The position numbers and the translations under genes were made by a program. From Escherichia coli (GTDB taxonomy: Bacteria; Pseudomonadota; Gammaproteobacteria; Enterobacterales; Enterobacteriaceae): DNA of 64,000 nucleotides. How positions within the stretch are numbered: the first letter of the stretch is position 1; every line of letters begins with the position of its first letter. The notes beneath the pieces were generated by a model that did not search any database, was not told the DNA's origin, and worked only from the letters and a program-made list of their open reading frames with translations. Location of the stretch: NCBI RefSeq assembly GCF_003334355.1, contig NZ_QOWP01000003.1; one strand, written 5' to 3'. Positions 32,494 through 37,333 of this stretch are shown here, in pieces.

Positions 32494-32769
32494 ATGCCAA
32501 CAGTTCTCTCTCGCATGGCGATGCAACTCAAAAAAACAGCCTGGATAATTCCCGTCTTCATGGTTTCGGGATGCTCATTATCTCCGGCAATCCCGGTGAT
32601 CGGCGCTTATTATCCCAGCTGGTTTTTCTGCGCCATTGCCAGCCTTATTTTGACGCTCATCACGAGGCGAGTTATTCAGCGGGCAAATATCAATCTGGCA
32701 TTTGTCGGAATTATTTATACCGCCCTTTTTGCTCTCTACGCCATGCTGTTCTGGCTGGCATTTTTCTAA
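32494..32769 (+). CDS. ytcA: Small lipoprotein YtcA preceding mdtNOP
   Basis: 91 aa from MPTVLSRMAMQLKKTAWIIPVFMVSGCSL (lipobox) plus C-terminal TM helix. Confidence 0.8.
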   Translation: MPTVLSRMAMQLKKTAWIIPVFMVSGCSLSPAIPVIGAYYPSWFFCAIASLILTLITRRVIQRANINLAFVGIIYTALFALYAMLFWLAFF

Positions 32770-32787
32770 TCTATTTGAGACGCGCTC

Positions 32788-33819: not shown

Positions 33820-35870
33820 TGAGCGCGCTCAACTCCCTGCCATTACCGGTGGTCAGGCTGCTGGCGTTCTTTCATGAAGAGTTAAGCGAGCGGCGACCAG
33901 GTCGCGTGCCGCAGACCGTGCAACTCTGGGTAGGCTGCCTGCTGGTGATTCTGATCTCGATGACCTTTGAGATCCCTTTTGTGGCGTTATCGCTGGCAGT
34001 GCTGTTTTACGGTATTCAGTCGAACGCGTTTTACACCAAATTTGTCGCGATCTTGTTTGTGGTTGCCACGGTGCTGGAGATCGGCAGCCTGTTTTTGATC
34101 TACAAATGGTCATACGGCGAACCGTTGATCCGATTGATCATCGCCGGACCGATCCTGATGGGCTGCATGTTTTTGATGCGCACCCATCGCTTGGGGCTGG
34201 TCTTTTTCGCCGTCGCCATTGTCGCTATTTACGGGCAAACCTTCCCCGCCATGCTCGACTATCCGGAAGTGGTCGTGCGCTTAACGCTGTGGTGTATCGT
34301 TGTTGGCCTCTATCCAACCTTGCTGATGACGTTAATCGGCGTGCTGTGGTTTCCCAGTCGTGCCATTTCGCAAATGCATCAGGCGCTTAATGATCGGCTT
34401 GATGATGCCATTAGTCACCTGACAGACAGCCTCGCACCGCTACCCGAAACGCGGATTGAAAGAGAGGCGCTGGCGCTACAAAAACTCAATGTCTTTTGCC
34501 TCGCGGACGATGCCAACTGGCGAACTCAAAACGCATGGTGGCAAAGCTGCGTGGCAACGGTAACCTACATTTACTCGACGCTGAATCGCTACGATCCCAC
34601 CTCTTTTGCTGATTCTCAGGCAATTATTGAATTCCGACAAAAATTAGCCTCAGAAATCAACAAGCTGCAGCATTCCATTGCCGAAGGTCAGTGCTGGCAA
34701 AGCGACTGGCGGATCAGTGAAAGTGAAGCGATGGCGGCACGGGAATGTAACCTGGAGAATATCTGCCAGACGTTGTTACAACTGGGTCAGATGGACCCGA
34801 ATACGCCGCCAACGCCCGCCGCCAAACCACCATCAATGGCCGCCGATGCTTTTACCAATCCAGACTATATGCGCTACGCGGTAAAAACGCTGCTCGCCTG
34901 TTTGATCTGTTACACCTTCTACAGCGGCGTCGACTGGGAAGGCATTCACACCTGTATGCTGACCTGCGTGATCGTCGCTAACCCGAATGTCGGTTCGTCG
35001 TACCAGAAGATGGTGCTGCGTTTTGGCGGGGCTTTTTGCGGCGCGATTCTGGCGCTGTTATTCACGCTACTGGTCATGCCCTGGCTGGACAATATTGTCG
35101 AATTGCTGTTTGTGCTGGCACCTATTTTCCTGTTGGGCGCATGGATTGCCACCAGCTCTGAACGTTCTTCTTATATCGGCACACAGATGGTGGTCACCTT
35201 CGCGCTCGCCACGCTCGAAAACGTTTTTGGCCCGGTGTACGACCTGGTGGAAATTCGCGATCGCGCCCTGGGTATCATCATTGGTACCGTGGTGTCCGCG
35301 GTGATTTACACCTTTGTCTGGCCTGAGAGTGAAGCGCGCACGCTGCCGCAAAAACTGGCTGGCGCGCTGGGTATGTTAAGTAAAGTAATGCGGATCCCAC
35401 GCCAGCAGGAAGTCACGGCTCTGCGCACTTATCTGCAAATTCGTATAGGTCTGCATGCGGCGTTTAATGCCTGTGAAGAGATGTGCCAACGCGTGGCGCT
35501 GGAGCGTCAACTGGACAGCGAAGAACGCGCATTACTGATTGAACGTTCGCAAACGGTTATTCGTCAGGGCCGCGATCTTCTTCACGCCTGGGATGCCACC
35601 TGGAACTCGGCGCAGGCGCTGGATAACGCACTACAGCCGGACAGAGCAGGTCAGTTTGCCGACGCCCTGGAGAAATACGCTGCCGGTCTGGCAACCGCAC
35701 TCAGCCGTTCTCCTCAAATAACGCTTGAAGAGACACCCGCCTCTCAGGCCATCCTGCCCACCTTATTAAAACAGGAGCAACACGTCTGCCAGCTTTTCGC
35801 CCGCTTGCCAGACTGGACAGCCCCGGCATTAACGCCCGCCACGGAACAGGCACAAGGAGCCACGCAATGA
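33819..35870 (+). CDS. mdtO: Efflux pump inner-membrane component (FUSC-like)
   Basis: 683 aa polytopic membrane protein; start overlaps mdtN stop. Confidence 0.9.
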   Translation: MSALNSLPLPVVRLLAFFHEELSERRPGRVPQTVQLWVGCLLVILISMTFEIPFVALSLAVLFYGIQSNAFYTKFVAILFVVATVLEIGSLFLIYKWSYGEPLIRLIIAGPILMGCMFLMRTHRLGLVFFAVAIVAIYGQTFPAMLDYPEVVVRLTLWCIVVGLYPTLLMTLIGVLWFPSRAISQMHQALNDRLDDAISHLTDSLAPLPETRIEREALALQKLNVFCLADDANWRTQNAWWQSCVATVTYIYSTLNRYDPTSFADSQAIIEFRQKLASEINKLQHSIAEGQCWQSDWRISESEAMAARECNLENICQTLLQLGQMDPNTPPTPAAKPPSMAADAFTNPDYMRYAVKTLLACLICYTFYSGVDWEGIHTCMLTCVIVANPNVGSSYQKMVLRFGGAFCGAILALLFTLLVMPWLDNIVELLFVLAPIFLLGAWIATSSERSSYIGTQMVVTFALATLENVFGPVYDLVEIRDRALGIIIGTVVSAVIYTFVWPESEARTLPQKLAGALGMLSKVMRIPRQQEVTALRTYLQIRIGLHAAFNACEEMCQRVALERQLDSEERALLIERSQTVIRQGRDLLHAWDATWNSAQALDNALQPDRAGQFADALEKYAAGLATALSRSPQITLEETPASQAILPTLLKQEQHVCQLFARLPDWTAPALTPATEQAQGATQ

Positions 35871-37333
35871 TCAATCGTCAACTTTCACGTCTGCTGTTGT
35901 GCAGCATTCTCGGCAGCACGACGCTGATTTCCGGCTGTGCCCTGGTACGTAAGGATTCTGCACCTCATCAACAGCTCAAACCGGAACAAATCAAACTGGC
36001 CGACGATATTCATCTTGCCAGCTCCGGCTGGCCGCAGGCGCAGTGGTGGAAACAACTCAATGACCCGCAGCTGGATGCGCTGATCCAACGGACGCTAAGT
36101 GGTTCACACACCCTCGCCGAAGCGAAACTGCGGGAAGAAAAAGCGCAGTCCCAGGCCGATTTGTTAGATGCCGGTTCACAATTACAGGTCGCAGCGTTAG
36201 GGATGCTCAACCGCCAACGTGTCTCGGCGAACGGCTTTTTAAGCCCTTATTCAATGGATGCGCCAGCACTGGGTATGGACGGGCCGTACTATACGGAAGC
36301 CACAGTAGGTTTGTTTGCCGGACTGGATCTTGATTTGTGGGGTGTGCATCGCTCAGCGGTTGCCGCCGCCATTGGCGCGCATAATGCCGCGCTGGCAGAA
36401 ACCGCAGCAGTAGAGCTATCGCTGGCCACGGGCGTAGCGCAGCTTTATTACAGTATGCAGGCCAGCTATCAGATGCTCGATCTGTTAGAACAAACTCACG
36501 ATGTGATTGATTACGCGGTGAAAGCGCACCAGAGTAAAGTGGCGCACGGTCTGGAAGCGCAAGTGCCTTTCCACGGCGCGCGGGCACAGATTCTGGCGGT
36601 CGATAAACAAATTGTTGCCGTCAAAGGGCAAATCACCGAAACGCGAGAATCTCTGCGTGCATTGATTGGCGCGGGAGCCAGCGATATGCCGGAGATCAGA
36701 CCGGTGGCATTACCGCAAGTCCAGACCGGCATTCCGGCGACACTCTCTTATGAGTTGCTCGCCAGACGCCCGGATCTGCAAGCCATGCGCTGGTATGTTC
36801 AGGCGTTATTAGATCAGGTGGATTCCGCGCGGGCGTTGTTCTATCCGAGCTTTGATATCAAAGCGTTTTTCGGTCTGGACTCCATCCATCTGCATACCTT
36901 ATTCAAAAAAACCAGTCGCCAGTTCAACTTCATCCCGGGTCTGAAATTGCCGCTGTTTGACGGTGGACGGTTGAATGCCAATCTCGAAGGCACGCGCGCC
37001 GCCAGCAACATGATGATTGAACGTTACAACCAGTCAGTACTGAACGCGGTGCGTGACGTTGCCGTCAACGGCACGCGTCTGCAAACGCTCAACGACGAGC
37101 GAGAAATGCAGGCTGAACGCGTGGAAGCCACGCGCTTTACCCAGCGCGCTGCCGAGGCCGCCTATCAGCGCGGCTTAACCAGCCGCTTACAGGCCACCGA
37201 AGCCCGGTTGCCAGTGCTTGCCGAAGAGATGTCATTACTGATGCTGGACAGCCGCCGGGTGATCCAAAGCATTCAGTTGATGAAATCGCTGGGCGGCGGG
37301 TATCAGGCAGGTCCCGTCGTCGAGAAAAAATAA
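35867..37333 (+). CDS. mdtP: Efflux pump outer membrane factor lipoprotein (OMF family)
   Basis: 488 aa; lipobox LISGCA; TolC-like repeats. Confidence 0.92.
   Translation: MINRQLSRLLLCSILGSTTLISGCALVRKDSAPHQQLKPEQIKLADDIHLASSGWPQAQWWKQLNDPQLDALIQRTLSGSHTLAEAKLREEKAQSQADLLDAGSQLQVAALGMLNRQRVSANGFLSPYSMDAPALGMDGPYYTEATVGLFAGLDLDLWGVHRSAVAAAIGAHNAALAETAAVELSLATGVAQLYYSMQASYQMLDLLEQTHDVIDYAVKAHQSKVAHGLEAQVPFHGARAQILAVDKQIVAVKGQITETRESLRALIGAGASDMPEIRPVALPQVQTGIPATLSYELLARRPDLQAMRWYVQALLDQVDSARALFYPSFDIKAFFGLDSIHLHTLFKKTSRQFNFIPGLKLPLFDGGRLNANLEGTRAASNMMIERYNQSVLNAVRDVAVNGTRLQTLNDEREMQAERVEATRFTQRAAEAAYQRGLTSRLQATEARLPVLAEEMSLLMLDSRRVIQSIQLMKSLGGGYQAGPVVEKK

Follow-up and report, generated by a model that had tools for sequence, protein, structure and literature searches.

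What does a small lipoprotein contribute to a tripartite efflux pump? The question is raised by ytcA of Escherichia coli, a short gene at the head of the mdtNOP efflux operon, which was examined here in a window of 64,000 nucleotides (nt) of DNA (RefSeq assembly GCF_003334355.1, contig NZ_QOWP01000003.1). All coordinates refer to this window, and the features of the operon and its upstream region are on the + strand. The ytcA coding sequence (32494..32769) consists of 91 codons and a stop codon, opening with the ATG at 32494 and ending with the stop codon at 32769, and it is the first cistron of a ytcA-mdtN-mdtO-mdtP operon. The initial annotation had described a 91-codon open reading frame (ORF) located 18 bp before mdtN, and these positions are exact, with mdtN beginning at 32788. 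It had also presented ytcA as a small lipoprotein gene heading mdtNOP, a description on which the Pfam family PF17090, the NCBIfam models for MdtN, MdtO and MdtP, and the annotations of K-12 and RefSeq all agree. The spacer between ytcA and mdtN (32770..32787) is 18 nt long and contains a conserved TTGAGAyGC; a terminator scan found no convincing terminator between the two genes.

The role of YtcA in the pump had been left blank in the initial annotation, and no functional study of the protein or report of its lipidation was found in the searchable literature. The role is not a complete blank, however, because YtcA is a lipobox-bearing relative of AaeX and of the DUF1656 family, which has been assigned by cofitness to pumps built from a membrane-fusion protein (MFP) and a FUSC transporter. 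Judging from sequence comparison, YtcA is probably a small lipid-anchored accessory subunit, located in the inner membrane, of the FUSC/PET-type tripartite efflux pump MdtNOP. This proposal is made on account of homology to AaeX, the position of the gene in its operon, and synteny.

Relationship to AaeX, YdhI and DUF1656

In a BLASTP comparison, residues 28-88 of YtcA align with residues 2-61 of AaeX at 38% identity (E 8e-6). Since the alignment opens one residue after Cys27 in YtcA and one residue after the initiator methionine in AaeX, these two positions correspond. The conserved segment that follows Cys27 (SLSPAIPVIGAYYP; residues 28-41, 32575..32616), predicted to lie at the periplasmic face, aligns with the AaeX N-terminus (SLFPVIVVFGLSFP). 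Profiles built from 50 diverse YtcA relatives and from 20 AaeX proteins match over 49 columns in hhalign (E 3.6e-5, probability 71%), and the Pfam model for DUF1656 (PF07869) is matched by 20 of the 50 YtcA relatives at E<=1e-3 and by 37 of them at E<=0.1, with a best value of 1e-6.

AaeX (YhcR) is also encoded first in its operon, ahead of the MFP gene aaeA and the FUSC gene aaeB. It is 67 amino acids (aa) long, compared with approximately 65 aa for mature YtcA, and both proteins are predicted to form two-helix hairpins with basic residues in the loop. Unlike YtcA, AaeX has no signal peptide or lipobox, and it has a glutamate (Glu20) where YtcA has the near-invariant C46. The aaeXAB operon, associated with aromatic carboxylic acid efflux, also differs from ytcA-mdtNOP in lacking an outer-membrane factor (OMF) gene. 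Pfam separates the two proteins, placing YtcA in PF17090 and AaeX in PF07869. With moderate confidence, YtcA can be regarded as an AaeX-like hairpin that may have acquired a lipoprotein signal peptide; retaining a separate Pfam family for it, inside a DUF1656-like superfamily, is the best arrangement.

A third small protein, the DUF1656 member YdhI, is encoded in ydhIJK, which likewise combines a small membrane protein with an MFP (YdhJ) and a FUSC protein (YdhK). YdhI and YtcA both have a GxxYFPP motif before the first transmembrane helix; YdhI lacks a lipobox, and its sequence similarity to YtcA is very weak. E. coli K-12 holds three parallel operons of a small protein, an MFP and a FUSC protein: ytcA-mdtNO(P), aaeXAB and ydhIJK.

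Lipobox, helices and predicted topology

Codons 1-26 of ytcA (32494..32571) encode a predicted lipoprotein signal peptide with a positively charged start (R7, K13 and K14), the hydrophobic core AWIIPVFMV and the lipobox V-S-G. They are followed by the codon for Cys27 (32572..32574), predicted to be the lipidated first residue of the mature protein. The lipobox noted in the initial annotation is present: residues 17-27, WIIPVFMVSGC, with cleavage expected at VSG|C27, fit the core pattern of the PROSITE rule PS51257, {DERK}(6)-[LIVMFWSTAG](2)-[LIVMFYSTAGCQ]-[AGS]-C. The same rule places the cysteine at positions 15-35 and a lysine or arginine among the first seven residues, and YtcA has Cys27 and R7 in these places. 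The residues after the lipobox, SLSPAIPVIGAYYPSW, put its cysteine directly before the family segment PSIxVLGAYFPxW.

The lipobox is a family trait. Its statistics were taken from 127 of the best 141 family representatives, in which the motif was located automatically: position -3 is L in 94 of the 127, position -2 is S, A, T or G in 104, and position -1 is G in 103, so that the family lipobox reads L-[SATG]-G-C. The cysteine is present in about 97% of 132 representatives, and Cys27 is invariant in the enterobacterial and family alignments (A2 and A3); about four of the 132 members lack the cysteine and have a plain signal peptide or, like AaeX, none at all. After the cysteine, the family consensus is xxPSIxVLGAYFPxWxFC, a motif that continues through W43 into the first transmembrane helix. 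G37, P41, W43 and W87 are invariant in the family alignment, C46 is a cysteine in 122 of the 127 sequences, and Y75, invariant in the enterobacterial alignment, is near-invariant across the family.

The C-terminal transmembrane helix given to YtcA in the initial annotation does exist (residues 71-90, 32704..32763, with Y75 and W87), but it is not alone. The mature part, approximately 65 aa long in E. coli and with a family median of 69 aa that is close to the 67 aa of AaeX, has another helix at residues 42-64 (32617..32685), which includes C46 and ends in the RRVIQR cluster, predicted to be cytoplasmic. An AlphaFold2 model computed from a 50-sequence alignment (mean predicted local distance difference test score, pLDDT, 81) predicts three helices (residues 5-25, 42-64 and 71-90), the block-mean pLDDT values being 86-97 over residues 41-90, and the hydropathy profile concurs. 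As modelled, mature YtcA is a two-helix hairpin. The only basic cluster (R58, R59 and R63) is located between the helices. Since lipoprotein processing leaves the N-terminus in the periplasm, and given the positive-inside rule, the expected topology is N-out, with a cytoplasmic loop and a C-terminus that is again out. One paper places YtcA among the ordinary lipoproteins and uses the term "TM helix-containing" for YiaM and CyoA only (PMC7139219), and the two-helix nature of YtcA is thus not generally recognised.

In the alignment with AaeX, C46 (32629-32631), at the periplasmic end of the first helix, is matched with Glu20, which points to a conserved site within the membrane that is polar or reactive and could serve in contacts or function. 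A disulfide between Cys27 and C46 would be impossible, because Cys27 is predicted to be lipid-modified.

The +2 residue after Cys27 is serine, and aspartate is found at +2 in no member of the family. It would consequently fall to the two transmembrane helices to keep YtcA in the inner membrane. A precedent is provided by CyoA (subunit II of cytochrome bo3 oxidase), as it is also a lipoprotein with two transmembrane helices, and after processing it is retained in the inner membrane without aspartate at +2. It differs from YtcA in being an unrelated protein of unrelated function with a large periplasmic domain. CyoA is described as a two-helix E. coli lipoprotein kept in the inner membrane in the same paper (PMC7139219).

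Family distribution and gene order

A hidden Markov model search of 1.84 billion cluster representatives (50% clustering) detected 493 YtcA relatives at E<=1e-3, 79 of them at E<=1e-10. Two long, repetitive proteins, P0220 (1321 aa) and P0221 (1953 aa), score 94-101 bits against the YtcA profile by way of 10-13 short repeats that match approximately profile positions 11-57; they resemble translated repetitive DNA and are probably spurious matches.

Gene neighbourhoods were surveyed in one genome per GTDB species, which yielded 80 loci, and the stop-to-stop ORFs of each were searched with MdtN, MdtO, MdtP, AaeA, AaeB, YdhJ and YdhK. The loci come from Pseudomonadota (Burkholderiales, Pseudomonas, Nitrosomonas, Gluconacetobacter, Tatumella and Shimwellia), Acidobacteriota (Acidipila, Edaphobacter and Bryobacteraceae) and Verrucomicrobiota (Puniceicoccales and Pedosphaera). 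The ytcA-like gene is directly upstream of an MdtN-like MFP gene on the same strand in 79 of the 80, and an MdtO-like FUSC gene is then present wherever the contig extends far enough. The estimated gap between the stop of the ytcA-like gene and the start of the MFP gene has a median of 15 nt and falls between -10 and +40 nt in 69 of 76 cases. The synteny observed is thus near-obligate. An MdtP-like OMF gene occurs downstream in at least 53 of the 80 loci, a weakly MdtP-like one occurs immediately upstream on the same strand in four (from Acidobacteriota and Verrucomicrobiota), one of the loci with an upstream OMF gene having a downstream one too, and a further Burkholderia locus has one OMF gene upstream and another downstream. 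About 17 loci have the lipobox form and no OMF gene detectable nearby.

The sole orphan ytcA-like gene among the 80 loci is found in Pararobbsia alpina (L057, 6941-7225). Its lipobox and motifs are intact, neither an MFP nor a FUSC gene adjoins it, and it is followed by an opposite-strand gene encoding 256 aa.

Five Pseudomonas loci (L008, L031, L036, L051 and L075) combine a ytcA-like gene and an MFP gene with an MdtO-like gene that is far shorter than usual, and no OMF gene was detected within the flank fetched for any of them. In L031 (6962-9435), the only one of the five short forms examined, the MdtO-like protein has 357 aa, aligns with MdtO residues 14-169 and 342-504, which comprise both membrane bundles, and lacks both hydrophilic domains. 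These loci look like a minimal, membrane-only variant of the FUSC pump. On the basis of the L031 protein, the constant companion of YtcA would be the membrane-embedded part of the pump, and the short loci fit an interaction of YtcA inside the membrane.

Proposed role in the MdtNOP pump

In the model favoured here, the 91-aa YtcA precursor would insert into the inner membrane, where the Lgt/LspA/Lnt pathway would lipidate Cys27 and the signal peptide would be cleaved. The resulting mature protein of about 65 aa would hold its acylated N-terminus and the SPxIPVxGAYFPxW segment at the periplasmic face; the first transmembrane helix (42-64) would then cross inward, the RRVIQR loop would be cytoplasmic, and the second helix (71-90) would return to the periplasm. 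Within the membrane, YtcA would bind MdtO at its transmembrane core, MdtN at its membrane anchor, or both. These are the most likely partners by sequence analogy, because AaeX and, more distantly, YdhI are also small first-gene products of operons encoding an MFP and a FUSC protein. Once bound, YtcA may make the assembled pump more stable or tune it, in the way that AcrZ acts on AcrB.

AcrZ (YbhT) binds AcrB in the AcrAB-TolC system and tunes that pump without being essential to it. It is a functional analogy only, namely a small inner-membrane protein on the transporter of a tripartite pump: AcrZ has a single transmembrane helix, is no lipoprotein, is encoded away from acrAB and has no sequence relationship to YtcA, and its partner is an RND transporter, whereas the partner proposed for YtcA is a FUSC protein. 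The complex is mentioned as AcrABZ-TolC in PMC7139219. Genetic data are available for the DUF1656 family. In several bacteria, according to Price et al., the small gene shows cofitness with the MFP and FUSC genes beside it, and these authors annotated it as an efflux pump component (bioRxiv 10.1101/072470). Deletion of aaeX gives a biofilm phenotype (PMC8277102).

Several observations weigh against the proposal. The main one is genetic: according to PMC8672772, which cites Valderrama 2019, an 8855-bp deletion that runs from alsR through ytcA and mdtN places mdtOP under the als promoter and gives delta-tolC E. coli resistance to pyrrolomycin and armeniaspirol, and this resistance reportedly disappears once mdtOP is deleted as well. 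As the deletion strain is resistant, YtcA, and even MdtN, would on that account be dispensable for mdtOP-dependent resistance; it could be that paralogues substitute for them, AaeX or YdhI in the case of YtcA. By the classical E. coli sorting rule, the serine at +2 is no signal for inner-membrane retention. The link to DUF1656 is statistically moderate. E. coli YtcA itself is sub-threshold on PF07869 (18.8 bits, i-Evalue 0.0016, model positions 4-35 of 56), the hhalign probability for YdhI and YtcA is only 22%, and BLASTP gives no match between those two. A Foldseek search of AFDB50 with the AlphaFold2 model returned YtcA-family proteins and noise only, with no DUF1656 protein, although fold comparison is no test of this link for a protein as small as a two-helix hairpin. 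Searches of the PDB with the YtcA and MdtO sequences gave no relevant structure, and no direct evidence for translation, lipidation or complex formation of YtcA was found in the searchable literature.

A different part in the same pump would leave much the same genomic trace. If YtcA were a biogenesis factor, assisting the insertion or folding of MdtO or the docking of the MdtN hexamer and dispensable in the finished pump, synteny and tight spacing would fit an assembly factor equally well, and the resistance that, as PMC8672772 relates it, persists without ytcA speaks for such a role. Genes that stand first in an operon, are followed by a short gap and are retained in three phyla more typically encode structural partners produced at a fixed ratio, and the cofitness of DUF1656 genes shows that losing them has an effect comparable to losing the pump itself. 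The present data do not separate the biogenesis model from the subunit model, and we consider the former unlikely. It is much less probable still that ytcA is mainly a regulatory upstream ORF, controlling mdtN expression through its translation with the peptide itself irrelevant. The 18-nt gap and the weak Shine-Dalgarno sequence (GAGA) before mdtN do make translational coupling plausible, and coupling may coexist with a function for the protein; the amino-acid sequence is nonetheless under purifying selection, and motifs shared across phyla (G37, P41, W43 and W87 invariant, C46 near-invariant) would not be expected of a leader indifferent to its sequence.

Two other possibilities concern where and in what form the protein resides. 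Sorting of mature YtcA to the outer membrane would be in keeping with the serine at +2 and the family-wide absence of aspartate there, and the lipobox form often accompanies an OMF gene (the at least 53 downstream and four immediately upstream cases noted above), while in E. coli no OMF gene belongs to aaeXAB or ydhIJK, whose small proteins are without a lipobox. Yet nearly the whole of mature YtcA is taken up by a pair of hydrophobic helices, each 20-23 residues long, and the basic cluster between them, and LolCDE and LolA could not carry an integral inner-membrane hairpin of this kind. In addition, a signal peptide is missing altogether from the homologue AaeX, approximately 17 lipobox-form loci have no detectable OMF gene nearby, and the two-helix lipoprotein CyoA remains in the inner membrane (PMC7139219). 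An outer-membrane location seems very improbable. That the lipobox is unused, and YtcA an uncleaved membrane protein with three helices, is slightly easier to entertain, as AlphaFold2 models residues 5-25 as a helix, and is still improbable. The lipobox and its cysteine are near-invariant across three phyla while the remaining signal peptide diverges freely, the ratio of nonsynonymous to synonymous substitution rates (dN/dS) being higher in the signal peptide than in the mature part by a factor of approximately 1.3 to 2.3. The first helix also appears dispensable, since in the relatives P0357, P0349 and P0355 a plain signal peptide, or nothing, stands in place of the lipobox.

Going further, it may be that hairpins of the AaeX/YdhI/YtcA type are obligate fourth subunits of all FUSC/PET pumps, with the lipid anchor of YtcA an adaptation that fixes its conserved N-terminal segment at the leaflet on the periplasmic side, in pumps equipped with an OMF of their own. 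This broader idea is speculative, and we hold it only tentatively. Were it true, the usual description of MdtNOP would be incomplete. One review presents the system as a three-component pump with YtcA unmentioned (PMC11762307), and MdtO has been labelled as MFS (PMC8277102 and PMC11762307) or as RND (PMC8672772), labels that would fall short in the same way. Structural work on FUSC/PET systems would then belong on a four-protein complex. As a rule of design, reconstitution, structural and knockout work on MdtNOP, AaeAB and YdhJK should include the small product of the first gene and should allow for cross-complementation among the three paralogues. To specialists in efflux pumps this will be no great surprise, yet it bears on the study of the structurally unsolved FUSC/PET family. 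What is added here is a corrected topology, the link to AaeX and DUF1656, the linkage to MFP and FUSC genes in three phyla, and a mechanistic proposal.

Coding status and annotation of ytcA

The ORF listing used for the initial annotation extends ytcA from an upstream codon, as had been remarked there: the mechanical ORF opens at a TTG at 32446 and would encode 107 aa. This longer form was rejected. In Salmonella the extension runs into a stop codon, in Citrobacter and E. albertii it falls out of frame, and because it is not conserved, the 107-aa ORF is a mechanical artefact. Two internal candidates for the start, M8 and M10, were rejected as well, as neither is conserved among the genera compared. 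Orthologues in Escherichia, Salmonella, Citrobacter and Kluyvera have 91-93 aa (mostly 91), and all share M1.

Estimated by the Nei-Gojobori method, dN/dS for ytcA is 0.15 in comparison with E. albertii, 0.24 with Salmonella and 0.26 with Citrobacter, and it is 0.10-0.22 for the mature part alone. By these sequence measures, ytcA qualifies as a real protein-coding gene under purifying selection. YtcA matches the Pfam family PF17090 (Ytca) with an i-Evalue of 1.7e-15, residues 30-91 covering model positions 1-62 of 62, and the same model is matched by all 50 of the diverse YtcA relatives.

The suggestion that the gene is easily missed did not hold up, since ytcA is an already known gene and carries an annotation in those E. 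coli RefSeq genomes that were inspected. In K-12 the same gene, of 276 nt, is entered as ytcA (b4622) with the product name "putative lipoprotein YtcA". DNA of the ytcA region was detected by megablast in 5386 of 5426 complete E. coli genomes, and the RefSeq product name is "YtcA family lipoprotein"; no NCBIfam model matched YtcA, so this name evidently comes from another rule. Genome annotation is unaffected by the present analysis, as ytcA is already called correctly.

IS1 is inserted inside the 615-bp interval around ytcA (32286-32900) in at least 10 of the complete E. coli genomes, a count that is a lower bound. The insertion in strain 19SZHZ886Rt (L001, 3465-4240) is in the 3' end of ytcA, corresponding to 32739-32747 in the window and to codons 82-85, and is flanked by a 9-bp target duplication (CGCCATGCT). 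It changes the C-terminus of YtcA from ...MLFWLAFF to ...MLVMTPTY and cuts mdtNOP off from its native upstream region; mdtO is a pseudogene in the same strain.

Upstream region and regulation

The gene preceding ytcA, yjcS, ends in an intrinsic terminator (32294..32323), identified by a terminator scan as a 12-bp stem with eight G-C pairs followed by a T-rich tail. In E. albertii, Salmonella and Citrobacter the stem is preserved through substitutions that compensate each other, and the terminator sets yjcS apart from the ytcA transcription unit. Another terminator-like site, at 32694-32709 within ytcA, has a weak stem (six pairs, three of them G-C) and was treated as a chance occurrence.

Between the terminator and the gene is an AT-rich 5' region (32324..32479) with conserved blocks that include GAAAATnGCCATACTG and ATATTGTTCG; the entire yjcS-ytcA spacer is 34% G+C. 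A promoter scan found no sigma-70 consensus promoter upstream of ytcA on the + strand, and no convincing -35/-10 pair could be placed by eye in the conserved upstream blocks. Given the lack of a sigma-70 consensus on this strand, the region is presumably a ytcA promoter region that is regulated or silenced. The mdtNOP promoter is without experimental definition (PMC11762307). LeuO reportedly activates mdtNOP, with H-NS antagonising LeuO, according to the mention of Shimada 2009 in PMC11504656. An Rfam scan of 32100-33000 at a permissive threshold returned only chance-level matches, far under the gathering scores, and the leader is therefore taken to be without a known riboswitch or leader RNA.

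Translation of ytcA could begin from a Shine-Dalgarno-like AGGA (32480..32483), located 10 nt from the ATG within a block, ACAGGATGT, that is invariant across four genera. The corresponding sequence before mdtN is the weak GAGA mentioned above.

Neighbouring genes

The part of the window from 30288 to 39678 contains E. coli yjcS, ytcA, mdtN, mdtO, mdtP and fdhF, in reversed orientation relative to the K-12 coordinates, and the gene order yjcS-ytcA-mdtNOP-fdhF is identical in Salmonella, Citrobacter and E. albertii. The three pump proteins were identified by NCBIfam equivalog models, with all scores above the respective cutoffs. The gene mdtN (32788..33819) encodes an MFP, or periplasmic adaptor, of the EmrA/AaeA type (NF007785, 535 bits, cutoff 376); mdtO (33819..35870) encodes an inner-membrane FUSC, or PET (ArAE), transporter (NF008510, 1369 bits, cutoff 821); and mdtP (35867..37333) encodes an OMF of the NodT family (NF007390, 1020 bits, cutoff 597). 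The reading frames of mdtN and mdtO overlap by 1 nt and those of mdtO and mdtP by 4 nt. MdtO matches both PF04632 (FUSC) and PF13515 (FUSC_2), and it is a FUSC family protein, neither MFS nor RND. A FUSC transporter, an EmrA/AaeA-type MFP and a NodT-type OMF are co-encoded here, the combination that characterises a PET/ArAE (TC 2.A.85) tripartite system.

MdtP opens with a lipoprotein signal peptide of its own (start at 35867-35938, …TTLISG|C), which is typical for NodT-type OMFs. Given this LISG|C lipobox, the operon encodes two predicted lipoproteins, one for each membrane.

Downstream of the operon, fdhF (37531-39678) encodes formate dehydrogenase H and has an in-frame TGA at 37948-37950, the codon for selenocysteine U140. 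Because of this codon, the gene is listed as two mechanical ORFs in the window; in K-12 it is a single coding sequence of 2148 nt.

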